Counted from the stretch's first letter, positions 12,466 to 30,299 are shown. The stretch is DNA of 64,000 nucleotides from Candidatus Hermodarchaeota archaeon (GCA_048885525.1 JBHLLP010000001.1:64001-128000); one strand, 5' to 3'. The notes: a model not told the origin generated them from the letters alone. Numbers and translations: made by a program.

Positions 12466-12915
12466 CTAAATTTTATCTAGAATAAATGATGGCAATCGGC
12501 CTTCATCTACCAAAATTCTTATTAAATTAGGCATACTATTCCATTGTCGAATAGAAAGGTTAAACTCTTCTTCTGTAATATCTTTTAATTGGGGAGCCCC
12601 AAAAGTTAGCATGCTAATAGAAGAGGTTATAAGATGTTTTACTTTTGTGCATGGGAACTCATTACATTGAGCACAACTATCAAACCCCTTTTCTCGTGCG
12701 CAAGGTCGGGCTTCACAATTCTTATCTGCTATTTTGTCTCCTTTACTCTTACAACCCTCACAATGAACATTCTCAGCAGTATAGTTTTCATGACCAAGAT
12801 ATTTTCGCCAAGCTTCAACCATTTTTTGTCGAATATTAATATTATCTGATTGAGCAGCACATAAATAACAGTTATAACCACAATAACCTATTATTTTATC
12901 ATCATTTTGAGTCAA
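12466..12915 (-). CDS. DUF3795-type Cys-rich (Zn/Fe-S) protein
   Basis: CGYNCYLC, CEGC and C..RPCA...SCAQCNEFPC pattern. Confidence 0.8.
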   Translation of the reverse strand: MTQNDDKIIGYCGYNCYLCAAQSDNINIRQKMVEAWRKYLGHENYTAENVHCEGCKSKGDKIADKNCEARPCAREKGFDSCAQCNEFPCTKVKHLITSSISMLTFGAPQLKDITEEEFNLSIRQWNSMPNLIRILVDEGRLPSFILDKI

Positions 12916-13028
12916 AAAATAACACCTCAGAGAGAAGAAGCAAATAATGTTTATAATTCTTATTGCCTATCTAGGTAATGTTTCTATATTAAGTCAATTT
13001 AAAATATTATAGAAAATATCCAAATGTT

Positions 13029-13502
13029 TCAATAATTTTGATAAAATACTTCTAAACCTAATTCTTGATTTAATAATTTAATATAAAACTCAAACTGTTC
13101 ATTAACAAGATCATAATGAGTGAATTTTCCCTTTTTGAAACTTCTAATGAGCCCAACACTCTCTAAAATTCGAAGATGATGTGAAATAGATGGTTGGGAT
13201 TTATCTAAGATTGCTTCTAGTTCACAAACGCAATGATCATTATTCTTTAATGCTGTAACTATTTTTAAACGTTCCTTATTTCCAAGAGCATAACAGAATT
13301 CTAATATTTTTTCGAAGTTGTCGAAATTGTCTAAATTTTTTCCAAAATCTTGTAAATTTTGGAAGTAGGTATTAACATCAATTTTTTTCATATCAATACA
13401 ACTTTCAAGGGAGCCAATTATCTCAAGAGTCCGCTTTTTATTAATATTATCCACCCAAATTATTATAACTTTTTTGAGAAATATAATTAATGCACTTATC
13501 AA
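13029..13502 (-). CDS. arsR: ArsR/SmtB metalloregulator
   Basis: ALGNKERLKI, CVCEL As(III)-binding motif, SQPSISHHLRIL HTH; divergent from acr3; true start probably downstream. Confidence 0.88.
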   Translation of the reverse strand: MISALIIFLKKVIIIWVDNINKKRTLEIIGSLESCIDMKKIDVNTYFQNLQDFGKNLDNFDNFEKILEFCYALGNKERLKIVTALKNNDHCVCELEAILDKSQPSISHHLRILESVGLIRSFKKGKFTHYDLVNEQFEFYIKLLNQELGLEVFYQNY

Positions 13503-13509
13503 ACATTAT

Positions 13510-13531
13510 ATATTTATATTAATATAAATAT
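13510..13531. promoter_or_regulatory. Perfect 22-bp palindrome in the arsR-acr3 divergent promoter (candidate operator)
   Basis: ATATTTATATT/AATATAAATAT; entirely A/T, so it may be chance. Confidence 0.35.
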
Positions 13532-13638
13532 TTTATTAAACTTTTTAAATCCAAATATTTTTATTTGATGCATTTCATAAATATCTCAAACTGTATAAAT
13601 ATAAAATACATAAAAAAACATAAAATTTTTGAAGATAG

Positions 13639-14700
13639 ATGAGCATTTCAGAAACAGAGGGATTATCAGTAACTCATGAAGAACAATCTAAAGATCTTGG
13701 ATTTTTTGAAAAATATCTTACATTATGGGTCGCTTTATGCATTTTTATTGGAATTCTTTTATCTATTTATGTTCCAGAAATAAGTCAAGCGATCAATTCA
13801 TTTACTATAGGTCAAATTTCTATACCGATTGGTATTTGCCTATTTTTAATGATGTATCCAGCAATGTTGAATTTGCAAGTTTCAGAGTTGAAAAAATTAG
13901 GTAAAAATCCCAAACCAATAATTCTCACGATAATATCTAATTGGTTAGTTGCTCCATTTGTAGGTCTACTTATGGCTCGTATATTTTTACAAGGTTATGA
14001 GCAATTAGTTGTTGCTATCATATTACTAAGCTCAAGTCCATGCACCGCAATGGTTTTAGTATGGGGATGGATGGCAAAAGGCAATCAAGAGCAAAATGTA
14101 GTAAATACGAGTCTAAATACGATAACAATAATCTTTGGTTATGCTCCTATGGTAACATTATTAACGGGTATTCAGAATATTCCTGTTGATTGGGTACTTC
14201 TACTTATTTCAACATTAATTTTTATTGGACTTCCGTTATTTCTTGGAATAATTAGTAAAAGATTATTAATATCAGCTAAAGGTGAGGATTGGTTTAATAC
14301 TACATATAGACCAATAGTTGGAAAAATCTCGATTATTGCCTTACTAACAACATTAGTGGTTCTTTTTTCTATGAATGGAGAAGTATTAATTAAGAATCCT
14401 GGTTACCTTTTATTGGTTTCCGTCCCACTCTTACTTGGATTCGTCATCGTTGTTGGTTACAACATCCTTATAACAAAGCTATTTAAATTAAAATATCGAG
14501 AAGCAGTCATAACAGTTATCATCGGTTCATCAAGTCACTTTGAAATTGCTATTGCTACAGCCATTGCTATGCCTGGTTATGGGATCGGGTCATTAGCAGC
14601 TTTGGGCACTACAATGGGATTATTTTGGGAAGTACCAGTAATGCTTTCGATTGTTTATTTAGGCAAATTCCTAAGGAAAAGAGGTTTTTGGAAATCCTAA
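13639..14700 (+). CDS. acr3: Acr3 arsenite efflux permease
   Basis: FFEKYLTLWV, MMYP, SPCTAMVLVW, SSHFEIAIA and EVPVM motifs; about 10 TM segments. Confidence 0.93.
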   Translation: MSISETEGLSVTHEEQSKDLGFFEKYLTLWVALCIFIGILLSIYVPEISQAINSFTIGQISIPIGICLFLMMYPAMLNLQVSELKKLGKNPKPIILTIISNWLVAPFVGLLMARIFLQGYEQLVVAIILLSSSPCTAMVLVWGWMAKGNQEQNVVNTSLNTITIIFGYAPMVTLLTGIQNIPVDWVLLLISTLIFIGLPLFLGIISKRLLISAKGEDWFNTTYRPIVGKISIIALLTTLVVLFSMNGEVLIKNPGYLLLVSVPLLLGFVIVVGYNILITKLFKLKYREAVITVIIGSSSHFEIAIATAIAMPGYGIGSLAALGTTMGLFWEVPVMLSIVYLGKFLRKRGFWKS

Positions 14701-14776
14701 TATTTTTAATTATACATTAAATTATCAAATTAAGATAGGTATCTTGAAAAACTAAACAAAATTTTACTGAATAATA

Positions 14777-14956
14777 ATGAATGAAGAAAACATGGAAGAA
14801 CAGATAGCCAATATAATAAAGGAAGCGATGAGTCAAATTTCTCATTCGAGTTGTGACCATTCAGAAACACATTGTAATAAAGATAGTCCCGATTATGAAC
14901 CCAAACATATTCATTGTGGAACTGATAGATGCAAAGGACTCCATCAAAATGATTAA
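14777..14956 (+). CDS. Unannotated 59-aa His/Cys-rich peptide (candidate metal/metalloid binder)
   Basis: Hand translation MNEENMEEQIANIIKEAMSQISHSSCDHSETHCNKDSPDYEPKHIHCGTDRCKGLHQND*; 4 Cys, 6 His; stop 3 nt before the next ORF. Confidence 0.7.
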   Translation: MNEENMEEQIANIIKEAMSQISHSSCDHSETHCNKDSPDYEPKHIHCGTDRCKGLHQND

Positions 14957-14959
14957 AAA

Positions 14960-15256
14960 TTGGATGTGATAAAGATTAGAGAAGAAGTGGAATTAAAAAA
15001 ATTAAAAATAGATATTTACGTCCCATTAGATGCGTGTGCCTGTGAATGGGATAAGTTTATGAATCGCGTATTTGTTGAACTGACACCTTATATAAAATAT
15101 ATTGATTATGATACTAAGAATCTAAATTCAGAAGAAGCAAGAAAACTCAATCTACACAATAAATGCGTAGTTGTAGATGGAGAGAAAAAATTTTCCTCAT
15201 CTTTGTTTCTTAAAAAGGAATTACCAAATCTACTTAAAGCTAAAGGACTTATTTAG
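14960..15256 (+). CDS. Small thioredoxin-fold/ArsD-like protein with CxC motif
   Basis: KIDIYVPLDACAC after the first beta strand and CVVVDG near the end; located in the ars operon. Confidence 0.55.
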   Translation: MDVIKIREEVELKKLKIDIYVPLDACACEWDKFMNRVFVELTPYIKYIDYDTKNLNSEEARKLNLHNKCVVVDGEKKFSSSLFLKKELPNLLKAKGLI

Positions 15257-16492: not shown

Positions 16493-16756
16493 TTAAAATA
16501 ATTGATAATAATATGGGAAATTGCTCTTCAGAACCCCATACAACAAAGATTTTATCATCAAGGGTACTGCTACATGTCTCGCAGCAACAATCCAATCTAT
16601 CCCAATATTATTTCCAGTTCTGCTTCCCTCTTTAAATTTAAAATACATTGTCATACCTAAATGATCTTGAATTTTTGTATCTTCAATTTTAATATCTTCT
16701 AAATCTGGGATAGTAAATTCTTTGATATCAAGATTAGGCTGTATTGGTTCCCTCAT
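16493..16756 (-). CDS. Short hypothetical ORF, possibly a gene remnant at the end of the UvrA-like operon
   Basis: 87 aa; the frame stays open upstream of the ATG with no clear start. Confidence 0.35.
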   Translation of the reverse strand: MREPIQPNLDIKEFTIPDLEDIKIEDTKIQDHLGMTMYFKFKEGSRTGNNIGIDWIVAARHVAVPLMIKSLLYGVLKSNFPYYYQLF

Positions 16757-16807: not shown

Positions 16808-17221
16808 TTATAAAGAATTCAAGGAGGAGATAAGTTTATATTGATCTTCCGATAGTTTATCTTTTACTACTTCGAAAAGCTCTAAAAGTACATTGTCCGG
16901 AGCTCCCGCCATTACATACTTCAAAGGACCAAAAATTTTTATTTCTTTAATAAATTGAAATCCTCTGTTTTTCATATGTGTAACTAAAGCTTCTAAATCG
17001 TCGGTTTCAATCCCCAAATGATGAATGGCTCCACGTCCTTGGTCTTTTGGTGGTTGATCATAAAAATTAATTTTCGATGATCCAATTGATATCATTACGT
17101 TTCTAGCACCTGCCATTTTCAAATCAAATAAAACTTTAGCTCCAAACATATCTTGATAAAATTTAATACTTTTATCAAGATTGGAAGTAAAAAGATGTGC
17201 ATGATGAAGTGATGTTTTCAT
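16808..17221 (-). CDS. VOC/glyoxalase/bleomycin-resistance family protein
   Basis: LHHAHL...LDKSIKFYQDMFG, IHHLGI and PDNVLLELFE metal-ligand pattern. Confidence 0.88.
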   Translation of the reverse strand: MKTSLHHAHLFTSNLDKSIKFYQDMFGAKVLFDLKMAGARNVMISIGSSKINFYDQPPKDQGRGAIHHLGIETDDLEALVTHMKNRGFQFIKEIKIFGPLKYVMAGAPDNVLLELFEVVKDKLSEDQYKLISSLNSL

Positions 17222-17286
17222 ATTTCGACCTTTTCAATTTTTTCATTAATTTTATTATTTGAATAATTGGACTATATAAAAGTTTT

Positions 17287-18321
17287 TTAAAATCTTCTTG
17301 TTTTCTTTGGATATATTTGAAAAGGAGTACGTGCTTCTTCGGAAATCCATTCTACGTTTTCATTTATATGAGAAAGTGATCTCAATAAGTCAAAAGTTAG
17401 CCAACGTGTAGCTTTTGGATGTGAGATATATTCCCATAATCCATATTCTCCTCGTTCAGACTTTATGAATTCTATGAAATCACAAATCCGCTCATCATCC
17501 TTACTAGCATCTACTCTCCAACAAAGATTTAATATATGAGCAATATCAAATTTAGCCATAAAAGTTATCCGTCCAAAAGACTTTTCTAATCCAATAAGAC
17601 GGGCAATCATGAAACCTACATTATTTCTTAATTTTGAATCAGTTCCAAGTATTAGATCTAGAGCTCGCTTAGCTTCATCACTTTTACTACGTTTAGGGTG
17701 ATAAGCAAGACAGGTGAGAACTGCTGTCGTATTCGATCGGCACCCCCATCTTGAATGAGCAAGACGGCGATATCCAGCAATTCCTCCATAATTACCTGCA
17801 GATAAACCAACAGGCCATGCCCCATCTTCTAAACGTTGTTCCATTAACCATTCAAATGCTTTCTCAGTTCTTTCATCCGTTGAATATCCACACATAACTA
17901 ATCCTAGAAGTGGAATTGCAGTTTGAATAGGCATCATCTGATATCCAATTTCTTCATCAATTAACTGTTTCTTACCAGGCATTGGCCAAGAACCATCTTT
18001 TTGTTGTTTTGAAAACATAAATTCTGCAGCTCTCTGCACAACTGGATAAGACGAATCAAAGCCAAAATAACCTAATCTCTGTAATGCTATAGATGTTATT
18101 TGAAGGTTATCACTGGTTGTAATTCGTTCTACCCCAAAAGAATCCCATGCTCCATTTTTTTTTTGGAGTTTAAGTAAATCTCTGACGAGGGAGTCTGATT
18201 CTCTCATTTCTGATAATTCTTGAACTTCTTTTTCATCCTTGGAATGGTGTAATAATTCAGTTAATACCAAATATCGTAAACAAGGAGATGGATCAGTTAA
18301 TAAAAGTGGAATCCATGTCAC
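17287..18321 (-). CDS. Prenyltransferase/terpene-cyclase-like alpha/alpha-barrel protein
   Basis: QW-type repeats QKKNGAW, QQKDGSW, QRLEDGAW and ERGEYGLW; no DxDD cyclase motif; GTGA overlap with the upstream gene. Confidence 0.7.
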   Translation of the reverse strand: MTWIPLLLTDPSPCLRYLVLTELLHHSKDEKEVQELSEMRESDSLVRDLLKLQKKNGAWDSFGVERITTSDNLQITSIALQRLGYFGFDSSYPVVQRAAEFMFSKQQKDGSWPMPGKKQLIDEEIGYQMMPIQTAIPLLGLVMCGYSTDERTEKAFEWLMEQRLEDGAWPVGLSAGNYGGIAGYRRLAHSRWGCRSNTTAVLTCLAYHPKRSKSDEAKRALDLILGTDSKLRNNVGFMIARLIGLEKSFGRITFMAKFDIAHILNLCWRVDASKDDERICDFIEFIKSERGEYGLWEYISHPKATRWLTFDLLRSLSHINENVEWISEEARTPFQIYPKKTRRF

Positions 18322-21300
18322 AATCCTCCCTCCAATACTTTTTTTAAATAAGATGCGGTGGGTGTATTTAGTTCTGCAACTTCTTCGGGAGGACCTTTAG
18401 CAATAATTTGACCTCCTTTTGGTCCCGCTCCTGGTCCTAATTCAATAATCCAATCGCATGATGCTAACACATAAGGATGATGTTCAATTACAACTACAGT
18501 ATGACCTCTATTAATTAAAAGGTGTAACACATCAATTAAATTAGACACATCCTCCATATGCTGTCCAATAGTCGGTTCATCTAAAATATAGAGCGTTTTT
18601 TTGTTGGATTTCTTCGATAATTCCTTCACTATTTTAAGTCTTTGAGCTTCACCTCCAGAAAGAGTACGAGCGGGCTGATTTAATTGCAAATAACCTAAAC
18701 CTACTTTCCTAGCATAATTTAATTTTGAATGAATTGTTTCAAAATCTTTAAACAATTCATAAGCTTCATCAATTGTTAAATTATTTATGTCTGGCAACGA
18801 AACACCTTTAAAGTATATTCGCCAAGCTTCAGCAAGATAACCAGATCCCTTACAGCTTTCGCAAGTTTCAACAATATCAGGTAAAAATTTCATATCTAAT
18901 TTGATAAAACCACGTCCATTGCAAACGGAACATCTTTTTTTTAATCTTTTTTCATTTAATCTTAAAACCTTTGCATCTTCAGTCTCAGCAAAAATTTTAA
19001 GTATAGAAGGTTCTAAACCTAAGAATTTAAGAGGACTTCCAATTTTTGCTTTAGTTTGATCTACCAATATTGTTTGAGGTAAAGAGCCTTCAATCTTTTC
19101 ATATTCCCCGGGATCAATAGGTTCTCGTGATACAGAAGTTGTATGTTTTATAGGCACTAAAGCTCTTCCCAATGTGTCAATTAGTAAAGTACTTTTTCCT
19201 GAACCTGAAACTCCACACAATCCAGTTAATGAACTGTGAGGAATCTCAACTAATTCACCTTTTAGGTTATGCTCTTTTGCTCCAAAAATCTTTAACCATT
19301 TCTTTGGTTTTCGAGTCTTTCTTGATAATTTAAATTTCCTTTTTCCACTTAACCAGTCTCCCGTAATAGTATTAGATTTTATAACTTCTTCTAAAGTTCC
19401 TTTAGCTACAATTTCGCCACCGTTGGCTCCTGCTCCTGGTCCCATATCAATAATGTAATCAGCGAATTCTAAAAATAGAGGATCATGTTCTATTATAATA
19501 ATTGTATTGCCTTTATTTCGTAATTTAATTAGAACCTTTAATAATGCCATTAGTTCAGAAGGATGTAAACCCCTTGAGGGTTCATCAAGTAGAATAGTTA
19601 AAGACGTTAATTCACTCCCTAATAGTCCAGCTAATCGTACTCTCTGAGCTTCTCCAGCTGAAAGGCTCTCAGCAATGCGATTTAAATTAATATATCCTAA
19701 TCCCGTTTTGATTAGAAATTCCAAACGAATCAAAATGACCTTAAGGCTATTTTTCACAAAATCTGGTATTTTATCTTCATTCTTTCCTTTTTTAAGAATT
19801 TCAAAGAGTTCATTCAATGGAATCTCGCACATCTGTGGGATGTTATATCCATAAAGAGAGATAGCTAGATATTGAGGACGTAATTTCATTCCATGACATT
19901 CATTGCATACTTCCTTATCTGTATAGGTCCCTCCTACATCCCAATCTCTTAACCAGTGCTCATAAAACCCTTTGAATTGAACTACTTTATTATAGATTTG
20001 TCCTTTTTTGTTTTCAAATTCTACATCTAAAGGTTCTTTTTCTCCAAATACAAATGCATTTTTTGCTAGTTCTGACATGTCATTCCAAGTTGTTGAAAAT
20101 GGATCAAAACCATAACGAGCTGCGAGAGCCTGAACTATATAATAACCCCCGTTATATGGTTTACATAGGTATCCTTTTGGAAAAAACCCGGGAGAGTACA
20201 TAGCGCCACTGCATAATGGTTTTTCAGGGTGAATTATTAATTTGTTTGGATTAGGGACTTGAAATGATCCTACTCCATGGCACTTAAGACAAGCTGCAGA
20301 ATAATTTGTAGGTATGAAATGTCTTGGTTTTGCAAAAACTATTGAAGTATTACACTTCTTACAAACCCATTTTTCTTCTCTTTCCATCCACTGATTGCAT
20401 TTAGGACAAGTTCGCTTTCCCATATAAGAAAATATATTCGACAAATGGAGTATTATGTCTGTAGCCTTTCCTATAGTATTTCTGAGATTAAAATACCATC
20501 CATGTATAATTTTTTCAGGGATAATTGATGCTGTTATACCTAAACCTTGAATATTTTCTACTAGAGCTTCAGTGCTTTCTTTTATACCTTGTCTTTCATA
20601 CATCGATAATGTTTCTAAATACCTACGTCGTGCTTCTGTTTCAAGTGTATCTATTATCAAACTGGATTTACCTGATCCAGAGACTCCTGTGATTACAGTT
20701 AATTTCTTTTTTGGTATTTTAACATTTACATTCTTTAAATTATGAATATGAGCATTTTGAATAATAATATTTTCTGAACTTTCTCGTTTCTTCTTTACTT
20801 TTTCAATTAATGGTAAGGTTTTTTCCTCTTCTTTCAAAGCTCGAGCTGTAAGAGATGAATGTATATCCATAAATTCTTTTAACGAACCCTGATAAATTAT
20901 TTCTCCACCAGAAGGTCCAGAACCTGGACCAAGGTCTATAATCCAATCAGCAGCTCTTATAATGTCTATATTATGTTCAACTACAACTAAAGTTGCTCCA
21001 TTTTGAATCAAGTTATTCAAAATTTTTAGTAACCCTGCTAAATCCTGGGGGTGCAATCCTGTTGAAGGTTCATCAAGAATAATTAAATGGTCCTTTAGAG
21101 TCTTTCTACCAAGGTATTTTGATAATTTAATTCGTTGAGCTTCACCCCCAGATAATGTTGGTGAGGGTTGGCCTAAAGAAAGATATCCCAAACCGATATC
21201 ATTAAGAGCTTTTAACATTTGATTTGCAGAATTTAGATCTCCAATAGATAATCGCTTCTCTTTATCTAAAATCTTAACAACCTCTGAAATTGGTATATCA

Positions 21301-23207
21301 TAGAATTCTGCAATAGAATATTCTTTATCTTCAAACTTAACTTTTTCAGTAAGAATCTCTTCAGAAAATCTCTGACCATTACAATCTGGGCAATCAATCC
21401 AATTAGAAGGTAAATATCTCATTTTAATTTCAAGGGCACCCATTCCATTGCATGTTGGACATTGACCTTCTGGAGTATTAAATGAAAAATAAGTAGCATT
21501 AAATCTAGTAGCCTTAGCAAACACTTTTCTAATAAGATCAGCTATCTTTGTATATGTAGCAGGATTTGATCTAGGATTTTTGCCAATGGGTCCTTGATCT
21601 ACCATTATAGGTTTAACATTTGGACCTTTTATTCCATCACAACCAATAGTTTCCTTTCCTTTTAATGTGGAAAATAATACATTTTCAACTAAAGTACTTT
21701 TTCCCGAACCAGATACGCCTGTGATGACCGTTAGACGATTTAAAGGGATCTTACAACTAATATTCTTCAAATTATGCTTTTTAGCATTCTCTACTGTAAG
21801 AAATAATTGAGGTTTAGGTCTATATTTGGGAATTTTTACTTTTTCTCTTGAACTAAAAAACTTACCTGTTGGTGTCTCTGCTTTCCATAACTCAGCAGGA
21901 GTTCCAGTAAATATGATTTCACCCCCATATCTTCCAGCTCCGGGACCGATATCAATCACATTATCTGCAGATAATGCAGCTTGCCGGTCATGTTCAATAT
22001 AAATCACTGGACCCTCAAGATTGTGAAGTACTGGTAATAATCGTGCGACATCAGCGGGATGTTGACCAATCGTCGGTTCATCAAGTATATGTGTTATATC
22101 CTCTAATTCACTTAATAATGCAATAGCTAGTCGAACTCTTTGAGACTCCCCTCTTGATAAAGTTGGAGAAACTCGATCTAACGTTAGATAGTCTAGACCT
22201 ACAGTCTTTAATGCAAGCAGACGTTTTTTGATTTCTTGTAGTAATCTATTTGTAATTGGTAATTCCTCTTTAGAGAAGTAAGTGATTAGTTCTCCCACTG
22301 ATTTTGTTAATATTTGGGAAAATAACATACCTTCCCAAGAAACATTAGATGCTAGTGGATGATATCCTGTTTTATTACATTCTTTACACCCTCTTCCCTT
22401 ACAATGAGGACAATTTTTCTTAAAGTGTGTAGGTTCAAGCTCACCAAACCAATTGCCACATTCCACACATATAGGAACTCGAGAAATGATAGATTTTACT
22501 GATTTTCCTTCAACAATTAATGAATTTGCCCCTAATGAGGAGATAGTTTTAACTATATTTCGAATCTCATTAATATTGCTGCTTGCGGTCACTTGACCAA
22601 TTTGAATCTGAATATCATGAGATTCCTTTGGATTTAATTCTGTCCTTACAGGTTTTCCGTCAACTAAAACTGCTTCAAAACCAAATTCCTTCTTTAGAAG
22701 TTCAATTAAGGTTTGATGACTCCCTTTTATTTTTCTTACTAAAAGAGCAGAAATAATTAATGATTCTCTTTTTCTCAATCCATCTACTTTAGCGATAATC
22801 TCGTCTTCTTTTAAAACAGACAAATTACTACCACATACATGGCATTTTCTATCACCAAATCTGGCATATAAAATCTTTAAAAGCGGAATAAGACCTATTG
22901 CTGATGCTAAGATGGAATTTGGATTTCGATTAAGAACATTCTGTCCAAGAGCTATTGTAGGTCCTAGTCCAGTTATAGACCTTACTTTCGCAGGACTTAA
23001 TTTTATTTCATCTTTACTAACTGAAAATGCTTCTAAAAACCTGCGACGAGCTTCCTTATACAATATGTCGAAAATAAGTGAAGTTTTTCCCGAACCAGAA
23101 ACACCAGTTATCACCGTTAGCCCGTCTTTTATATCAACATCAACATTCTTTAAATTATGTTCCTCTGCTCCACGAATTTTTATCTCCATATTACTTCTAA
23201 CATCCAT
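18318..23207 (-). CDS. Tandem-duplicated UvrA-like ABC ATPase (four NBDs, 1629 aa)
   Basis: Four GVSGSGK[ST] Walker A motifs; signatures LSRGE, LSGGE, LSAGE, LSGGE; four LDEP Walker B motifs; several CxxC zinc modules; repeated HNLKNV and DLGPGAG motifs. Confidence 0.9.
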   Translation of the reverse strand: MDVRSNMEIKIRGAEEHNLKNVDVDIKDGLTVITGVSGSGKTSLIFDILYKEARRRFLEAFSVSKDEIKLSPAKVRSITGLGPTIALGQNVLNRNPNSILASAIGLIPLLKILYARFGDRKCHVCGSNLSVLKEDEIIAKVDGLRKRESLIISALLVRKIKGSHQTLIELLKKEFGFEAVLVDGKPVRTELNPKESHDIQIQIGQVTASSNINEIRNIVKTISSLGANSLIVEGKSVKSIISRVPICVECGNWFGELEPTHFKKNCPHCKGRGCKECNKTGYHPLASNVSWEGMLFSQILTKSVGELITYFSKEELPITNRLLQEIKKRLLALKTVGLDYLTLDRVSPTLSRGESQRVRLAIALLSELEDITHILDEPTIGQHPADVARLLPVLHNLEGPVIYIEHDRQAALSADNVIDIGPGAGRYGGEIIFTGTPAELWKAETPTGKFFSSREKVKIPKYRPKPQLFLTVENAKKHNLKNISCKIPLNRLTVITGVSGSGKSTLVENVLFSTLKGKETIGCDGIKGPNVKPIMVDQGPIGKNPRSNPATYTKIADLIRKVFAKATRFNATYFSFNTPEGQCPTCNGMGALEIKMRYLPSNWIDCPDCNGQRFSEEILTEKVKFEDKEYSIAEFYDIPISEVVKILDKEKRLSIGDLNSANQMLKALNDIGLGYLSLGQPSPTLSGGEAQRIKLSKYLGRKTLKDHLIILDEPSTGLHPQDLAGLLKILNNLIQNGATLVVVEHNIDIIRAADWIIDLGPGSGPSGGEIIYQGSLKEFMDIHSSLTARALKEEEKTLPLIEKVKKKRESSENIIIQNAHIHNLKNVNVKIPKKKLTVITGVSGSGKSSLIIDTLETEARRRYLETLSMYERQGIKESTEALVENIQGLGITASIIPEKIIHGWYFNLRNTIGKATDIILHLSNIFSYMGKRTCPKCNQWMEREEKWVCKKCNTSIVFAKPRHFIPTNYSAACLKCHGVGSFQVPNPNKLIIHPEKPLCSGAMYSPGFFPKGYLCKPYNGGYYIVQALAARYGFDPFSTTWNDMSELAKNAFVFGEKEPLDVEFENKKGQIYNKVVQFKGFYEHWLRDWDVGGTYTDKEVCNECHGMKLRPQYLAISLYGYNIPQMCEIPLNELFEILKKGKNEDKIPDFVKNSLKVILIRLEFLIKTGLGYINLNRIAESLSAGEAQRVRLAGLLGSELTSLTILLDEPSRGLHPSELMALLKVLIKLRNKGNTIIIIEHDPLFLEFADYIIDMGPGAGANGGEIVAKGTLEEVIKSNTITGDWLSGKRKFKLSRKTRKPKKWLKIFGAKEHNLKGELVEIPHSSLTGLCGVSGSGKSTLLIDTLGRALVPIKHTTSVSREPIDPGEYEKIEGSLPQTILVDQTKAKIGSPLKFLGLEPSILKIFAETEDAKVLRLNEKRLKKRCSVCNGRGFIKLDMKFLPDIVETCESCKGSGYLAEAWRIYFKGVSLPDINNLTIDEAYELFKDFETIHSKLNYARKVGLGYLQLNQPARTLSGGEAQRLKIVKELSKKSNKKTLYILDEPTIGQHMEDVSNLIDVLHLLINRGHTVVVIEHHPYVLASCDWIIELGPGAGPKGGQIIAKGPPEEVAELNTPTASYLKKVLEGGL

Positions 23208-25721
23208 TTAATTAAGATACGGACCAGTCTTGGATTTTTTATTCATTTTTATATCTGTTGAAGTACCTTCTGCGATAATCTTTCCTCCTTTAGGCCCTCC
23301 CTCAGGTCCTAATTCTATGATGTAATCGCAATATGAAAGAATCTCGGGATCATGTTCTATAATTATAACAGAATTACCTTCCCTAACTAATTTTTCAAGT
23401 AATTCCATTAGTTTTATTGCATCATAAAATGATAATCCAACTGTTGGCTCATCCAAAATATAAAGGGATTTCCCTTTTCTAACTTTTCCCAGTTCCTTTG
23501 CTAATTTTATACGTTGAGCTTCTCCCCCACTTAGAGTAGGAGCGGGTTGTCCAAGCTCAATATATCCCATTCCAATATCATCTAAAATATTAAGTACTTT
23601 TGAGATGCTTTCTTGTGTTTTAAATAATTCATTAGCTTCGTTAACAGTTATTCCAAGCACATCTGCTATGGATTTCCTTTTATACTTGATTTCTAATATC
23701 TCTGGTTTATATCTTGATCCTTTACACTCTTTACAGGGGATTGTAAAACTTGTAAGGAATGAGACTTGAAGATCTTGAACTCCTTGCCCCTTACATGCTG
23801 GGCAACGTCCTCTGTCAGAATTATAGGAAAAGTGTCCTGTAGTAAATTTACGTTTCTTAGCTTCAGCAGTTTTTGAAAATAAGTTGCGTATCTTGTCCCA
23901 AATACCGATAAATGAGCAAGGAGTGGATGTTCGTACTCTCGATATAGGTTTTTGATTAACTACTATGACTTCATCAATATTTTCCCATCCCTCTACCTGT
24001 CCAAAGTATTCTAATAATCCTTCACCATTTTCTTCATTTTCTTCCTCTTCCCCATTAATACTTTTTTGTTTTCCTTTTCTTTTAACTCTTCTCTTAAAGT
24101 ATGGTTTTAACAAAGGTACTAGTGTATCTAAAATAAGCGAGCTCTTACCAGAACCTGAAACACCCGCAACTCCTACCATTACGCCCAATGGTATTTTTAC
24201 TGTAACATTCTTCAGGTTATTTGTATTGGCATTACTTAATGTTATATATTTCGTAGTTCTATCAATATGCCTTAATGATTCAATTTCCTTTTTAGGCAAT
24301 TCTATTTGCCCTGCGAGGAATTGTCCTGTATATGATTCCTTAATCTGTTTAATGCCATCTAAAGCTCCTTGATAAACTATTTCACCACCATGAATACCAG
24401 CCCCGGGACCGATATCGATGATTTCATCAGCAATCTCAATAAACCGCTTATCATGCTCAACTACTATAATAGTATTTCCCAAATCCTTTAATTGCTGCAG
24501 TAGAGTAACTAATGAATCTTTTTCAAGCTCGTGCAAACTCATACTGGGTTCATCTAAAATATATATTAATGAGTCTAGACCTCCATCTAAATGAGTCATA
24601 AGTGATAATCTTTGTAATTCTCCCCCACTAAGTGTTGGTAAAGAGCGGTGTAAGTGAAGATAGGAAAGTCCAACATTAACCATCCGCTTTAAACCTAGTT
24701 TTACATTATCAAGTATCGCTCTTCCTTGAGGTCTTTTTATATCTTCATCACTTAAATTATCGAAATGTTCTTGTAATTCATCAATAGTCATCATAGCTAA
24801 CTCACCAATATGTTTTTCAGAGATTTTAATTCCTCGTGCTTCTTCATTAATTCTATATCCTTGACAATCTTCACATTTCTTCTTGGACATGTATTCCTTA
24901 GTAATCTTGTTCTTTCTATAATCACTCTTACCTTCAGTCATTGCACGTTCCATGTGGGGTATGATACCTTCAAATACACGTTCCAATTCTCCCTGAAAAG
25001 TCTTTGATTCCCACCAAAACTTTAACTTTTTACCCTTACTACCATATAGATATAAGTCTTTTATTTCCTGAGGTAAGTCCTTGTAGGGAGTATTCATATT
25101 AAAATCAAAGAAATTAGGGAGTTGTTCTACGAATTTGATTTGATCGGCAAAACAACCAGAACCCGCTTTTGTAATCTGCATTAAAGTTCTACTATAATCT
25201 TGAACGATCATTTCTTCAGTGAAATGCATCTCATATCCGCGACCCTTACAAGTTAAGCACATCCCTGAAGGTTCATTAAAGGAAAAATGCTTAATTTGCT
25301 TGCGATCCACAACCATCCCACATATGTCGCATTCGAGGGTTGATTGGTTCACTGGTTCTTTGCAAATAGGACATAAAAGGATACCTTGAGTAGCATATAG
25401 CATCCTAATTAAACTATAAATCCCTGTTTTTGTACCAACTGTAGACCGGGGATTAAATACGCGTGTAGTCCTCTGTTCTACTGCCACGGTAGGACTTAAC
25501 CCTTCGATCATATCGAAAGGTTTTTCATCTTCAAACTTAGGTGGGAACCCAATAGATTGAAGATATCGATTCATTCCTTCATCAAATATAATATCAAATG
25601 CCAAGCTAGACTTTCCCGATCCAGAAACACCTGTTATTAGGATCATCTTCCCTTTAGGAATATCGACATCTATATCTTTTAAATTATGAATTCTTGCTCC
25701 TCTTACCTTTATTATATCCAT
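23208..25721 (-). CDS. UvrA-like ABC ATPase (two NBDs; short UvrA2/DrrC-like architecture)
   Basis: GARIHNLK, two GVSGSGKS, FSFN..GMC..CKG.G, and two LSGGE motifs; appears to lack the UvrB-binding domain. Confidence 0.88.
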   Translation of the reverse strand: MDIIKVRGARIHNLKDIDVDIPKGKMILITGVSGSGKSSLAFDIIFDEGMNRYLQSIGFPPKFEDEKPFDMIEGLSPTVAVEQRTTRVFNPRSTVGTKTGIYSLIRMLYATQGILLCPICKEPVNQSTLECDICGMVVDRKQIKHFSFNEPSGMCLTCKGRGYEMHFTEEMIVQDYSRTLMQITKAGSGCFADQIKFVEQLPNFFDFNMNTPYKDLPQEIKDLYLYGSKGKKLKFWWESKTFQGELERVFEGIIPHMERAMTEGKSDYRKNKITKEYMSKKKCEDCQGYRINEEARGIKISEKHIGELAMMTIDELQEHFDNLSDEDIKRPQGRAILDNVKLGLKRMVNVGLSYLHLHRSLPTLSGGELQRLSLMTHLDGGLDSLIYILDEPSMSLHELEKDSLVTLLQQLKDLGNTIIVVEHDKRFIEIADEIIDIGPGAGIHGGEIVYQGALDGIKQIKESYTGQFLAGQIELPKKEIESLRHIDRTTKYITLSNANTNNLKNVTVKIPLGVMVGVAGVSGSGKSSLILDTLVPLLKPYFKRRVKRKGKQKSINGEEEENEENGEGLLEYFGQVEGWENIDEVIVVNQKPISRVRTSTPCSFIGIWDKIRNLFSKTAEAKKRKFTTGHFSYNSDRGRCPACKGQGVQDLQVSFLTSFTIPCKECKGSRYKPEILEIKYKRKSIADVLGITVNEANELFKTQESISKVLNILDDIGMGYIELGQPAPTLSGGEAQRIKLAKELGKVRKGKSLYILDEPTVGLSFYDAIKLMELLEKLVREGNSVIIIEHDPEILSYCDYIIELGPEGGPKGGKIIAEGTSTDIKMNKKSKTGPYLN

Positions 25722-25736
25722 TTTTGACCCCCATTT

Positions 25737-26408
25737 TCATTCTATTTTTTGTAATATGTAAGTTGTACATTCAAAACCCGTGGGATTTTTTTTTACCATA
25801 TCGATTTCTGCTAAATGACGTTTAATTTCTTTAATATCGTCAATATTTTCATATTTATTACGCAACTCATTTACTTTCTTTTCTAATGGAGCGTAGTATT
25901 CCTTCCACCAGCATTTTTCAGCCCATGGAATTTGCTTTAAAACATTAAAACCAAATTTTGGAAAATGTTTAAGCTTCTTATCTGCCCAATTATTAGCTTC
26001 ACCTGAAATCAAATAACCATTTAACTTTAGTATTCTATTACATTCAGTTATAGCCTTCTTGAAATCAAGAAGATGTATAACCCCTTCTTCCCAAATGATA
26101 TCAAACGTCTCGTCTTCAAATTTTGTATCATATATTGAACGATTAAATATTTCTATTCTATCTGAAAGTCCTTCTTGCTTAATTTTATGATTAAATTTAT
26201 TTAATGAATCCTGATCAATATCTATACCAGTTATTTTTCCATTACTTAACTTAACCAACTCCAAGGAGGGCATTCCAGTACCACATCCAATGTCAAGGAT
26301 GCGTGGTTTATCTATCCTTGGGATGCTTTCAAATGCCATTCTAGTGTATTGTAGAAACACAGCTCGAAGTCCCTCAGCATTTAGTTCTTTTAGTATATTT
26401 TCAACCAT
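25737..26408 (-). CDS. Class I SAM-dependent methyltransferase
   Basis: ILDIGCGTG, GIDID and FDIIWEEG motifs. Confidence 0.9.
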   Translation of the reverse strand: MVENILKELNAEGLRAVFLQYTRMAFESIPRIDKPRILDIGCGTGMPSLELVKLSNGKITGIDIDQDSLNKFNHKIKQEGLSDRIEIFNRSIYDTKFEDETFDIIWEEGVIHLLDFKKAITECNRILKLNGYLISGEANNWADKKLKHFPKFGFNVLKQIPWAEKCWWKEYYAPLEKKVNELRNKYENIDDIKEIKRHLAEIDMVKKNPTGFECTTYILQKIE

Positions 26409-26425
26409 TTTAAATCAAACCTCCC

Positions 26426-27595
26426 TTAAATTGCTTTTTTTACGGTTTCCCATGCTTTAGTTTCTAATTCCAACCATTCTTGAATACCCCAGTCAATCTC
26501 TGGAATTCGTTCTCTCCAAGCATCCGCCTCTTTTTTTGCCCCATCTAGCACTTTCTCACTCTCATTATTTAATTGTTTTAATTGCTTTTGATAATCTTTT
26601 TCTCCAGCTTCTGTAATTTTGTTACTTTTAAGGAATATTTCTCTAAGTTTACCCAAATTTGGAAGGTCATCTGGTAAAATGAGAGTTTCTAAGTCATGAA
26701 TTTTTTTAACGATATCCCCAAATATATCTGAAGCTCTCAGAAGTCCATCATTATTCAACAATTCGCCTGCTTCCTTCAAGAAATCTCTATATAAAATTCT
26801 AAACATAGCCCCCCCAGTCCCGCCGGTTTCCATGTAAATGAACACACTTACTAAACCAAAAATTAAATTTTCATCAGTGAACTCAGTTCCCCAAGTAGGA
26901 AGCATTATTCTCCACTTTTGGAAGCCTGTTAATCCCATATTTTTAATGGGAGGATTATACATGAAATTTACATTTGCTTTTATAGCTGCTGGTATAAGCT
27001 CTTTCAAATCCTTAATCTTTTTTGGTAGGACTAACTCAACTAGTTTATTCTTTGCTGGAAACGGTGCATGCTTACTTCCTCTTGCTGCCTTTAGTTCTTC
27101 ATAGGTCATAAGATGAGGATTTGCATATCTATCTGAGATATAAGCCATATTTTTCTCCTCATCTATTCCGTATGTTACAAATGTATGTGCTCCAAAATGA
27201 CCTGATTTTTCATTTGGAATGGGTGTTCCTTCTGCAAAAAAGAAAGGTAGATAAGCGAAGTCAACAAATGTAATTGCAGGTTGCTCTTTCTCTAATAGAG
27301 CCACTAAATTATTATGGGCTACATTTACAGATGCCGTTTCTGTTATTTTAACACTCCCTCCTAAACGATTTAGGACCCGTTCAAATACTTCAGTTTTTTT
27401 CACAGCTAATCCTAAAACCATTGGAAAAGGCATGCGTTTCATGTAAAAATAGAAGAATCCTAATCCAGAGCTTAAACCAACAATCATTGGTTCAGAAAGT
27501 TCAATATCATAGTATGCGAGCACTTTTCTAAGACTAGACATCTGGCAGTTTGCGCCTGCCATGTGTTTAAAATCATCGATTACTATTCTAACCAT
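26426..27595 (-). CDS. BtrH-like papain-fold cysteine hydrolase (BtrH_N plus DUF4872-like)
   Basis: H..GANCQMSSL, SEPMIVGL..GLGF, HFGAH and YISD give a putative Cys-His-Asp triad; ETGGTGGAMFR.LY..FL. Confidence 0.8.
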   Translation of the reverse strand: MVRIVIDDFKHMAGANCQMSSLRKVLAYYDIELSEPMIVGLSSGLGFFYFYMKRMPFPMVLGLAVKKTEVFERVLNRLGGSVKITETASVNVAHNNLVALLEKEQPAITFVDFAYLPFFFAEGTPIPNEKSGHFGAHTFVTYGIDEEKNMAYISDRYANPHLMTYEELKAARGSKHAPFPAKNKLVELVLPKKIKDLKELIPAAIKANVNFMYNPPIKNMGLTGFQKWRIMLPTWGTEFTDENLIFGLVSVFIYMETGGTGGAMFRILYRDFLKEAGELLNNDGLLRASDIFGDIVKKIHDLETLILPDDLPNLGKLREIFLKSNKITEAGEKDYQKQLKQLNNESEKVLDGAKKEADAWRERIPEIDWGIQEWLELETKAWETVKKAI

Positions 27596-27607
27596 TTTAT
27601 TTTCCTC

Positions 27608-28036
27608 CTATTTTATATTTGGATTTATTTTCAATCCACATTCATAACATTTTGTATCATGTATACAAATCTCATCACCACATTCGGGGCAAGTATATAG
27701 CTTTTTTTTTTCTTTGAGCCAAGACTCAACTCCAATTTCTTTAAGTCTCTTCAAATTTTTAATTGGACTAACATTGTACCTACTCACATAAGTATCATCA
27801 ATTTTCTTCAAATTATCACATGGGAATTTTTCACATTCATAACAGTATTCCAATTCCTTTTTCCTAATTGGGGGACAATCTCTTTTAATGAAAGAGCAAT
27901 TTTTATTACGGATTCTACAACCTAAACATCCATATTTAAGACCTTTTTCTTCCAAAAGATTTTTCTTCCTGATTAAATATGACCTACAGGCACCACAATA
28001 AATTCCACAAGGTGCAGCTAAATTATTATCTATCAT
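27608..28036 (-). CDS. DUF3795-type Cys-rich protein
   Basis: APCGIYCGAC, CLGCR, YCYECEKFPC and a C-terminal CPECG...CYECG. Confidence 0.82.
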   Translation of the reverse strand: MIDNNLAAPCGIYCGACRSYLIRKKNLLEEKGLKYGCLGCRIRNKNCSFIKRDCPPIRKKELEYCYECEKFPCDNLKKIDDTYVSRYNVSPIKNLKRLKEIGVESWLKEKKKLYTCPECGDEICIHDTKCYECGLKINPNIK

Positions 28037-28047
28037 TTGATTCTCAC

Positions 28048-29475
28048 CTAGTTTTTAATTTTTGATAATCTTGTGAATAATTCCTCTTCCTTAGTAAGAA
28101 TATTAATCACAGTATTATGCAGTTCACCAAAATCCACATGATTAATACAATCATCTTTATATTCATCACCCGCATTCTTTAATGTTTCTGCGATCAGAGT
28201 CCAATTTTGAGCAGAATCACTAATTATGGGGATGCATTCTTCAATAATACCGAATTCATAAGAATTCCATGCCCTAGGACCTTCTTTAAGCTCAGGATGG
28301 CTTAGTAATTCTTCTAAAAACTCTTTATAGAGCTTTCTGAAAGAACCCCCTCCAGTACCCCAAGTTTCAATGTATCCATGCATAAGCTCAAACATCATGC
28401 GTCCTAAGGATATTTCATTTCCTTTTGAATTTGTAATAGTTTTATTTAATTTATCTCCCCATGTGAGTATAGAATTTGCAAACTGCTTCAAACCTTGAAT
28501 ACCATTAGAATTCATTGAGGGTCGTAGCATGTTATTCACAACTTTTTGAATCGCTAACTTAACGCCTGCTGCTAAAGGTGGATGTTTACCATCAGCACGA
28601 CGTGTCATTGAGAATTGAGTATTCCCTGGATGCATAAACTTCGGTCCATAAGTCGAACTCCTCGCTGTCTTAAGGATATCAATTGGAACTTCTTGAAAAC
28701 CCTCAAATTCAGTGTCACCTATGTATGCAATTCCTATCTCCTCGTTATAACCCCCTAATACTACTGCATGCCCTCCAAAATGAGCCTCTTCCATCTCGTC
28801 ATCAAAACCTTCATAAGGCATATAAGCGATATCTACTCTTAAAATAAGTGGAGTATTTTGTTTTAACATCCTCTTAGATTCCTCCCAAGCTTTATCTGTA
28901 TTCGTGAATGATTGCTTTCTTAGTGTAATACCTAACAATCGACATGCAAGACTATTTGGTTCAATTGTACCTTGTTTTCCTCCTAAGAAGAATGGGATAT
29001 CTGATTTGGGCATAAAGGAAACTTGTCCAGTAGTGTCAAAAAATCCAAATCCCAACGTTGCATCTAAGCCAAAAGCCATAGGTTCGGACATCGGAAATCC
29101 ATAAAACTCGAATAAATCCCTCAATGACGAGGATTCGCAATGAAAACCAATTCGATGTATTAAATTATTTATAATAATACCTTTATCTTGATTTATTCCT
29201 CTTTCCCTATCATGGGTGTTCCCATATATAATGCTTTCAGCATTATTATACCATTCATCTCTTTTCTCCTTTAGAAATTTCCTTTTTAATGGATTTGAAC
29301 CATAAATCTTATGACAATTAGTGCATAAGGGAGTTGCATTATTTTGATCATCTGGACCTCCTTCATTTTGAGGTATTATATGATGAATTTGGATAGTTTC
29401 TAATCTATGGCAAATAGAGCATCTATGAAAGGCTTTATTTCGAACTTCATTTTTTATTTTTTCACTAAATGGCAT
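28048..29475 (-). CDS. HNH endonuclease fused to a BtrH-like cysteine hydrolase
   Basis: N-terminal CSIC...IHHIIP...GG.D...N...LCTNCH (HNH); then GFHCESSSL, HFGGH, YIGD and ETWGTGGGSFR. Confidence 0.8.
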   Translation of the reverse strand: MPFSEKIKNEVRNKAFHRCSICHRLETIQIHHIIPQNEGGPDDQNNATPLCTNCHKIYGSNPLKRKFLKEKRDEWYNNAESIIYGNTHDRERGINQDKGIIINNLIHRIGFHCESSSLRDLFEFYGFPMSEPMAFGLDATLGFGFFDTTGQVSFMPKSDIPFFLGGKQGTIEPNSLACRLLGITLRKQSFTNTDKAWEESKRMLKQNTPLILRVDIAYMPYEGFDDEMEEAHFGGHAVVLGGYNEEIGIAYIGDTEFEGFQEVPIDILKTARSSTYGPKFMHPGNTQFSMTRRADGKHPPLAAGVKLAIQKVVNNMLRPSMNSNGIQGLKQFANSILTWGDKLNKTITNSKGNEISLGRMMFELMHGYIETWGTGGGSFRKLYKEFLEELLSHPELKEGPRAWNSYEFGIIEECIPIISDSAQNWTLIAETLKNAGDEYKDDCINHVDFGELHNTVINILTKEEELFTRLSKIKN

Positions 29476-29537
29476 ATTATCCTCATTTTTTTATTGTAAC
29501 TTTATTATTTAGATAATTGCTGTAAAATCTCAGCAAA

Positions 29538-30122
29538 TTATTTTTCTTTATAATCGTTGGGACCTATTTGTCTCCCGAATTTTTTAAGTTCTTCTAAAAC
29601 CCATTCTATAAATTTGATATCAGTTTCTAAGATCATTATTGGATGTTTAAACAAACCTGTTACATTAATTGGTAATTGGCTATTAACTTCTAGCATTTCC
29701 TCTAATTCTTTTTTATGTTTTTTGATTTTATTAAGTGAATAGTTGAAAACCTTCATCTGTTCCTCAAATGTTAAAACTGGAAACATAGAAAATGCCACAT
29801 AAAAATCTTCATCATTTTTACCATAAAAATCACGTAAAACTTGCTCGATTTTGTTTTTCAATACCTCTGAGCCATAAGGGGTGATATTATATACCTTAAT
29901 CATCCGGTTATCAAGTTCTTCAATCCAAGACTGAACTAACCCATCTTTTTCAAGTTTTTTAAGAACTCCATATATAGAAGATGTCCCGATGCTTGTCCAG
30001 CCTCGCATCCCTCTATTTTCAATCTTTTCATCAATAATTTTTCCATGACATGGTTCCTCCGAGATCAAACCTAAAACAACAAAAGCTACATGACTTAAGT
30101 CATAGTTATTGTTTTCTGACAT
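29538..30122 (-). CDS. PadR-family transcriptional regulator
   Basis: VLGLISEEPCHG, SSIYGVLKKLEKDGLV and KVYNITPYG motifs; C-terminal helical dimerisation region. Confidence 0.88.
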   Translation of the reverse strand: MSENNNYDLSHVAFVVLGLISEEPCHGKIIDEKIENRGMRGWTSIGTSSIYGVLKKLEKDGLVQSWIEELDNRMIKVYNITPYGSEVLKNKIEQVLRDFYGKNDEDFYVAFSMFPVLTFEEQMKVFNYSLNKIKKHKKELEEMLEVNSQLPINVTGLFKHPIMILETDIKFIEWVLEELKKFGRQIGPNDYKEK

Positions 30123-30157
30123 TCTATACGATATAATTTTTTTAATTATGTATTCAG

Positions 30158-30179
30158 ATCGTTCTTATATAAGAATGAT
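30158..30179. promoter_or_regulatory. 22-bp near-perfect palindrome, candidate PadR operator
   Basis: ATCGTTCTTAT/ATAAGAATGAT with one mismatch, between a minus-strand TTTAAATA box (~30192-30199) and the padR start. Confidence 0.6.
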
Positions 30180-30299
30180 ATGATAATAGAATATTTAAAT
30201 CTTATGCAAAAAAATGAAAAATGACAATAAAAAAAAATATTGAAACTAAATCTAAATTTTAATTTACAAATTCATTTCTATTATTAATCTAATAGAAAT

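Follow-up and report, generated by a model that had tools for sequence, protein, structure and literature searches.

The window is a stretch of 64,000 nucleotides from the genome of a member of the Lokiarchaeia (Asgard archaea), in which positions 16808-30179 hold nine open reading frames, all on the minus strand and all where the initial annotation had placed them. Their Pfam assignments run, in transcriptional order, PadR; HNH with BtrH_N and DUF4872; DUF3795; BtrH_N with DUF4872; class I SAM methyltransferase; UvrA; double UvrA; an SQHop_cyclase_C-like barrel; and glyoxalase/VOC. The features are as follows.

30205..30227, minus strand: second upstream motif, TTGTCA...TGCA, from a comparison of 14 upstream regions
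30161..30176, no strand assigned: palindromic operator candidate with a TTCT-N6-AGAA core, presumed PadR site
29538..30122, minus strand: PadR-family repressor, 194 aa (PF03551, E 1e-11)
29176..29475, minus strand: HNH domain (PF01844, E 3e-9, aa 19-59) fused in frame to BtrH1; a rare add-on, possibly degenerate
28048..29175, minus strand: BtrH1, core gene, papain-like Cys-His-Asp enzyme of CtaG/CcbD/AziU3 fold (Z 21-23); C113, H236 and D254 in fusion numbering
27608..28036, minus strand: DUF3795 Cys-rich small protein, variable cargo
26426..27595, minus strand: BtrH2, second papain-like enzyme, variable; C17, H137 and D155; about 26-30% identity to BtrH1
25737..26408, minus strand: class I SAM methyltransferase, variable; 42-78% identity among loci, missing in some
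23208..25721, minus strand: UvrA1, 837 aa, in a clade of its own; no UvrB-binding domain, zinc module 1 and insertion domain kept
18318..23207, minus strand: double UvrA, 1629 aa, with four Walker A, four signature and four Walker B motifs
about 20784-23207, minus strand: N half of the double UvrA; degenerate UvrB-binding (docking) domain at about residues 125-260, insertion domain absent
about 18318-20783, minus strand: C half of the double UvrA; insertion domain present, UvrB-binding domain absent
17287..18321, minus strand: alpha/alpha-barrel protein, 344 aa, with QW-like motifs and invariant Y184, R185, C194 and R195
16808..17221, minus strand: VOC/glyoxalase-family protein with His/His/Glu candidate metal ligands; peripheral, mainly in close relatives

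Successive intergenic gaps measure 62, 11, 12, 17, 15, 0, -4 and 65 nt, the start of the barrel gene overlapping the stop of the double UvrA by 4 nt, and the candidate operator lies 39 nt ahead of the padR start. The reading frames, the gaps, the Pfam matches and the conserved palindrome thus bear out the description of nine co-directional, closely set genes behind a palindrome. The same is true of the claim that UvrB and UvrC are missing from the operon, as neither was found by Pfam among the nine genes; canonical uvrB-uvrA and uvrC, when located, proved to lie away from the operon on two other contigs of the same genome (C3 and C19), with uvrB and uvrC scoring above their TIGRFAM cut-offs.

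When Promethearchaeota loci were fetched with the barrel gene and followed as far as their contigs extend, we found the gene order to be kept in 21 of 21; loci of kin do not count as independent. Because the order recurs in this way, we regard the cluster as non-chance. Neither of the two outcomes that the initial annotation had named as refuting was observed: the gene set is widespread in these loci and in other Asgard families, and in bacteria for its modules, and neither UvrA groups with class I (below). The picture of one integrated nine-gene machine did not survive this comparison: the genes for DUF3795, BtrH2, the methyltransferase and the VOC protein are gained and lost among loci, and the two modules also occur separately. 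The operon is therefore made of two separable modules, padR-btrH and double UvrA plus barrel, with variable cargo.

The HNH domain had been assigned a role in incision, and we find no support for this as part of the system. Its fusion to BtrH occurs in 2 of 161 class genomes (this one and one other), and the BtrH proteins of relatives begin at residue 101 of the fusion. The domain has HH, N and CxxCH motifs, and the usual final His/Asn position, four residues past the CxxCH histidine, is occupied by Gly. We rejected the domain as a core component because the fused form is confined to two genomes, and likewise as private to this genome, given the second fused genome and two further relatives located elsewhere.

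The padR-btrH pair is conserved across Asgard families, padR lying directly 5′ of btrH in 19 of 23 BtrH loci of families other than that of the host. Of 56 regions upstream of padR, some of them from overlapping loci of one genome, 17 had the TTCT-N6-AGAA palindrome as their top-scoring site, compared with 0.6% of random 115-nt genome windows. A subgroup of relatives, mostly devoid of the first palindrome, carries the second motif, usually once or twice. Genome-wide, the operator matrix gave 77 matches against 50-75 in shuffles, showing no enrichment indicative of a PadR regulon. Prediction of a PadR-BtrH1 complex was weak, with a score of 0.54 against 0.01 for the best control (contact agreement at least 64%, partner pLDDT at least 84), where the score mark is passed by 58 of 80 solved pairs and 2 of 110 mismatched pairs, and passing scores of 0.60 or below comprise just seven solved pairs and both mismatched ones.

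What follows padR-btrH is exchangeable: the slot holds UvrA1, a lin2189-type cyclopropane hydrolase, an AlkD-family glycosylase, or the double UvrA with its barrel. We chose 19 padR-btrH loci from Asgard families other than the host's, with the BtrH score and not the cargo as criterion. The gene that follows was GyrI-like in eight, UvrA1 in two, double UvrA plus barrel in one and, in one, an AlkD-family enzyme of DNA-alkylation repair; in the other 7/19 it was unrelated or on the opposite strand. Amidase and nitroreductase genes were also seen as cargo. The GyrI-like slot proteins match Lin2189 (E 1e-48), and all ten copies retain E157, E185, W85, W99, Y46 and Y187, both catalytic glutamates included; these residues are required for yatakemycin/CC-1065 hydrolysis (PMC5684135). 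The families of the yatakemycin/CC-1065 self-resistance set, namely Lin2189 GyrI-like hydrolases and the glycosylase YtkR2, are thus found behind padR-btrH in related Asgard operons with the catalytic residues of the GyrI-like copies intact; unlike in that set, however, these genes are absent from the present operon, the host's own GyrI-like and AlkD-family genes sit outside it, and the locus bears no sign of a producer.

Both BtrH proteins carry a Cys-His-Asp triad; for BtrH1, the Cys and His are conserved in 52 of 52 sequences and the Asp in 50 of 52. A PDB sequence search returned no relative of BtrH1, and it was through its two-domain model (pLDDT 92) that we obtained a match to CtaG with Z 23.0 (rmsd 3.5, 297 aligned). 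Among solved structures, the fold comes nearest to CtaG and CcbD, both acyl-transfer enzymes, and to the aziridine-forming AziU3, so that the label of hydrolase given to these proteins is unproven. In common with the BtrH/CtaG/CcbD/AsbE thiotemplated ligases and AziU3, they combine a papain-like and a helical domain around the triad; in contrast to them, they are only 13-15% identical, coupled to a repressor, and found in an operon devoid of biosynthetic genes and, among its nine genes by Pfam, of any carrier protein. None of the characterised proteins with the BtrH/CtaG fold is a resistance enzyme; the examples cited work in biosynthesis, with carrier-protein thioesters as substrates (PMC12865890). 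Longer BtrH fusions were sought and none was found, which is weak evidence.

To place the UvrA proteins, we built a tree of 47 rows (SH-aLRT support, no bootstrap, midpoint root). In line with the initial annotation, the class I clade (99) leaves out UvrA1 and both halves of the double UvrA, which form three separate clades, each with support of 100. Membership of the Ecm16/DrrC class is not borne out: the class IIa clade (100), represented by DrUvrA2 and four others with Ecm16 and DrrC themselves outside the tree, contains no operon protein, and its placement relative to the UvrA1 clade is not settled. A missing first zinc module belongs to the definition of class IIa (PMC9328131), whereas UvrA1 and each half of the double UvrA retain both CxxC pairs of this module, which are absent from the IIa/IIb references. 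Like the class IIa proteins (Ecm16, DrrC, TrsM and D. radiodurans UvrA2), the operon proteins have the UvrA fold, two ABC sites and the insertion domain, are extra to canonical uvrABC, and in UvrA1 and the C half lack the UvrB-binding domain (0.03 of columns filled). Unlike them, one of the copies joins two units into an asymmetric dimer that is almost always accompanied by the barrel, and no biosynthetic cluster lies near the operon, in contrast to class IIa self-resistance genes. Ecm16, which also lacks the UvrB-binding domain, confers resistance to echinomycin independently of UvrABCD (PMC9328131, PMC10192343); chromosomal class IIa proteins of non-producers have unclear or minor roles.

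The proposed independence from UvrB needs a qualification for the N half of the double UvrA, where the UvrB-binding domain, although degenerate, persists over its full length (95% of columns filled; PF17760 above cut-off). Charged residues conserved on the UvrB-binding surface of class I are replaced in the double-UvrA copies compared, at positions matching B. stearothermophilus R176, D205-R206 and D219, which we take to be the UvrB-binding residues. A double-length UvrA with two units per chain is also known from Chlamydiae (NCBIfam PRK00635), where it is the housekeeping UvrA. The operon protein differs in scoring 889 against a PRK00635 cut-off of 3054, in the reciprocal domain losses of its halves, and in being an extra copy beside canonical UvrA.

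The barrel is tied to this protein: a UvrA C-terminus lies directly 5′ of it in 87 of 88 testable barrel loci, bacteria included. By sequence, the barrel matches PF13243 (E 3e-12); no close fold was found in the structure search, the best being squalene cyclase 1gsz with Z 15.2 (rmsd 4.0, 234 aligned), about the level expected of helical repeats, and the fold gives no function. It shares the alpha/alpha barrel and QW motifs with type II terpene cyclases and prenyltransferases, yet lacks a full-length family score (TIGR scores of 25-37 against cut-offs of 323-851) and the DxDD acid motif, in whose place the conserved columns hold Tyr-Arg and Cys-Arg. Three candidates for a natural double UvrA-barrel fusion were rejected as frameshift artefacts. 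One (L250) still encodes a normal UvrA C-terminus with its stop codon when the usual 4-nt overlap is read in the +1 frame, and a member of the same cluster found in a different assembly is unfused at 1556 aa; in the others the gene was already split (L251) or the junction garbled (P0277). In a bacterial Tn916-like element (L196), the double UvrA, barrel, DUF3795 (here too adjoining the double UvrA) and a WYL regulator lie directly after tcpC, the position that holds tet(M) in two other loci (L248 and L249), with a cargo GC of 0.33 against 0.39 in the conjugation genes. Given this resistance-cargo slot in a conjugative element, the module can move among bacteria; no barrel homologue was found on PLSDB plasmids.

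Taken together, we consider it reasonably probable that the PadR-repressed operon, working beside housekeeping UvrABC, provides inducible protection from small molecules that bind or alkylate DNA; these molecules are probably natural products of sediment neighbours. The initial annotation had proposed a small-molecule genotoxin, and the lin2189-type and AlkD slot genes and the double UvrA/barrel in the tet(M) slot now lend this independent support. The patchy distribution of the barrel gene (48 of 161 class genomes) and the canonical uvrABC elsewhere are as expected for an accessory defence. In such a system, PadR would bind the palindrome and be released by the toxin or a toxin product, possibly aided by BtrH1. 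The BtrH enzymes may acylate or cleave the toxin via a Cys acyl-enzyme intermediate, one of the least certain steps, and the methyltransferase and VOC protein could be optional toxin modifiers. UvrA1 homodimers, unable to load UvrB, would detect drug-distorted DNA through the insertion domain and remove the drug at the expense of ATP, along the lines proposed for Ecm16. In a further step that is also among the least certain, the double UvrA would act as a single-chain asymmetric dimer, one half reading DNA and the other using its remodelled docking domain, probably to bring in the barrel instead of UvrB; the invariant Cys-Arg site of the barrel may capture or cleave the adduct.

Several other explanations deserve weighing. 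Intact triads and a papain-like N-terminal domain related to C39 peptidases would suit repair of DNA-peptide or DNA-protein crosslinks, in which UvrA variants detect the bulky adduct and papain-like enzymes trim the protein, and a minimal three-gene form, padR-btrH-uvrA1, does exist in four loci (L059, L060, L087 and L100). We nevertheless think this unlikely: the full two-domain BtrH fold reaches Z 21-23 to small-substrate ligases against at most 15 to proteases, and BtrH often accompanies GyrI-like or AlkD cargo with no UvrA near, just as the double UvrA/barrel also occurs without BtrH. As the two occur apart, they are not obligate partners. It is similarly improbable that the double UvrA is an accessory sensor of nucleotide excision repair that loads the genome's UvrB in trans at lesions canonical UvrA handles poorly. 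The full-length domain of its N half and the presence of uvrB and uvrC in the genome would allow it; the replaced surface residues, the position of both halves outside class I and a constant neighbour that is the barrel and not uvrB argue otherwise.

A general xenobiotic or acyl-CoA metabolism operon with hitchhiking UvrA genes would account for the amidase and nitroreductase cargo and for bacterial btrH genes, which follow TetR with PaaI thioesterases (L209) or MerR (L210) and have no DNA-repair neighbours. It is rather hard to reconcile with the fact that UvrA1 has stayed with the operon in Lokiarchaeia as well as in two further families (57-86% identity) and with the recurrence of three unrelated DNA-protection families in the slot, and we rate it low. 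An anti-virus system with an ATPase sensor and an HNH effector seems very unlikely. MADS is an eight-gene anti-phage set with a DNA methylase, specificity subunit, kinase and nuclease, and PADLOC profiles for mad3 and mad8 match the UvrAs strongly and mad2 the methyltransferase. These are its only matching profiles, however, and they fall on generic methyltransferase and ABC-type stretches, the ATPase matches being weaker than those of UvrA models; six operon proteins (PadR, both BtrHs, DUF3795, barrel and VOC) have no PADLOC match, nearly all operon copies lack the HNH domain, and the neighbourhoods are not defence islands.

Within the preferred reading of a small-molecule defence, we offer a further, tentative and still doubtful proposal: that the double UvrA and barrel form a new two-protein, UvrB-independent pathway of drug or adduct removal, the barrel docking in UvrB's place and acting via its invariant cysteine, together with a sensor-repressor switch in which the papain-like BtrH acts on PadR by binding, modifying or cleaving it, so that Asgard archaea would have a response of their own that genotoxins induce. 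The switch is suggested by gene coupling and by the weak complex prediction. Our literature search, with most subscription papers outside it, found no paper describing the operon, none combining UvrA and BtrH and no usable one on double-length UvrA classes; titles and abstracts on Asgard/UvrA and DUF3795 held nothing evident about the operon.

A single-chain dimer with split DNA-reading and docking roles and a constant partner offers a clean test system for UvrB-independent UvrA drug resistance. Its study would also show what two uncharacterised families do, namely the barrel and the BtrH proteins outside biosynthesis, and the operon suggests that in sediment archaea near the ancestry of eukaryotes DNA is exposed to chemical attack.

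Gene families that swap into the slot directly behind padR-btrH provide the strongest functional evidence for this operon (16808-30122, minus strand). In 21 close loci, the order is btrH, (DUF3795), (btrH2), (methyltransferase), uvrA1, double uvrA, barrel and (VOC), as far as contigs extend. Wider sampling splits this order into separable modules. BtrH_N is matched in 209 of 400 Asgard genomes, padR immediately precedes btrH in 19 of the 23 loci of other families, and in minimal forms the pair is followed by uvrA1 (L059, L060, L087, L100), double uvrA-barrel (L088), a GyrI-like gene (8 loci) or an AlkD family gene (L086). Glycosylases such as YtkR2, which is AlkD-like, protect against yatakemycin and CC-1065. 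The GyrI-like cargo matches Lin2189, with both catalytic glutamates and the residues of the aromatic cage kept in 10/10 copies, and enzymes of this type hydrolyse the same two DNA alkylators (PMC5684135).

Independently, locus L196 contains a Tn916-like element in which tcpC is followed by the double UvrA, barrel, DUF3795 and a WYL regulator. In two annotated plasmids recovered by means of that tcpC protein, the corresponding position carries tet(M); the L196 parallel is a single case. The element is conjugative, with a serine recombinase, and its cargo (L196:5181-12892) also includes DUF6050. Because of the slot cargo and the L196 case, we favour an inducible defence directed at small-molecule genotoxins over proteolysis of crosslinks, accessory nucleotide excision repair (NER), general metabolism and anti-virus defence; we consider this function reasonably probable, and infer its substrate and each mechanistic step.

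The strand and spacing of the nine genes match the initial annotation, and their families are borne out by Pfam. The window spans positions 64001-128000 of contig C1. The host genome (3.58 Mb, 29% GC) carries canonical uvrB-uvrA on contig C3 and uvrC on C19, so the UvrAs of the operon are extra copies. The palindrome at 30161-30176, from its position the presumed PadR site, fits a motif kept 5′ of padR across Asgard families (17/56 upstream regions vs 0.6% by chance); genome-wide enrichment of the motif was looked for in the window genome and not found. A second upstream motif (30205-30227) is a possible alternative operator; it frequently occurs twice in one subgroup of relatives, most of which have no main palindrome. 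After VOC, an 87-aa ORF (16493-16756) shares 70-75% identity with the C-terminal portion of a 400-416-aa gene that relatives carry close to the operon, and is probably a remnant. At 12466-15256 of the window, a second DUF3795 gene adjoins genes resembling, by sequence, an ArsR-type regulator and an ACR3 arsenite exporter.

Compared with class I (NER) UvrA, UvrA1 has lost the UvrB-binding domain but retains both zinc module 1 and the insertion domain. In the double UvrA the losses are reciprocal, the N half having the docking domain without the insertion domain and the C half the opposite, with Walker A, signature and Walker B motifs intact at all four ATPase sites. The N-half docking domain is conserved in length, and the charged surface residues of class I, which we take to be those binding UvrB, are substituted. 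In a 47-row tree, UvrA1, N halves and C halves form three separate clades outside class I and class IIa; a grouping with class I NER UvrA would have counted against the initial reading. Membership of the Ecm16/DrrC class does not hold, since class IIa is defined by the absence of zinc module 1 (PMC9328131), which UvrA1 keeps; the operon proteins may nevertheless work in the Ecm16 manner. Elsewhere, UvrA of the canonical type comes as a fused double protein of 1917-1957 aa in Asgard family f13 (G171, G174-G176, G180, G185) and as two tandem full-length genes in f31 (G312, G320, G387-G389 and others), both distinct from the operon's double type (1620-1650 aa).

The BtrH1 model (pLDDT 92) matched AziU3, CtaG and CcbD across both domains (Z 21-23), far higher than peptidases, and the triad is nearly invariant in 52 sequences. 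CtaG, BtrH and AsbE are carrier-dependent ligases acting via a Cys-thioester intermediate (PMC12865890), whereas the operon encodes no carrier; BtrH may thus acylate or cleave a small molecule, or act on PadR. For a predicted complex of BtrH1 with a PadR dimer the score was 0.54 vs 0.01 for the best control. The tool grades this as weak, since passing scores of 0.60 or under came from only 7/80 solved pairs and from both of the mismatched pairs that passed. In bacteria, btrH is also found behind TetR or MerR regulators, a pattern that speaks for a first effector enzyme and against a PadR-dedicated protease. A TetR-btrH-PaaI-PaaI unit lies on an Acinetobacter plasmid (L209:784-3320), and BtrH matches occur on 45 Acinetobacter plasmid records. 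The HNH domain, initially taken as the nuclease of the system, is instead a rare add-on: the start of BtrH1 in relatives corresponds to residue 101 here, the fusion recurs in one further genome, of a different genus, among 161, and the last expected metal-ligand position is Gly.

The barrel protein is modelled (pLDDT 89) as an alpha/alpha toroid, for which structure comparison found no close solved relative. It lacks cyclase motifs, and the invariance of Y184, R185, C194 and R195 in 63 sequences suggests an active or binding site. Relatives of the gene at 65-87% identity are labelled Promethearchaeota or uncultured archaeon, which makes the host an Asgard archaeon of Lokiarchaeia type. Atlas clusters of the barrel are mostly bacterial, Chloroflexota being most frequent, with one Spirochaetota homologue. 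Double UvrA and barrel are also found on their own, on contigs of 31-70% GC, and in 87/88 testable loci the barrel gene is immediately preceded by a UvrA C-terminus. A distant paralogue (~23% identity, no Pfam match), with Cys at the aligned position too, directly follows btrH in some Lokiarchaeia copies, mostly in operons without double UvrA (L064:12211-13227; similar in L007, L089, L092, L094, L096, L097).

A literature search, with most subscription journals outside its reach, found no paper on the operon or the double-UvrA/barrel pair. The known kind here is drug resistance by UvrA paralogues, and the barrel partnership is the part that could be categorically new.
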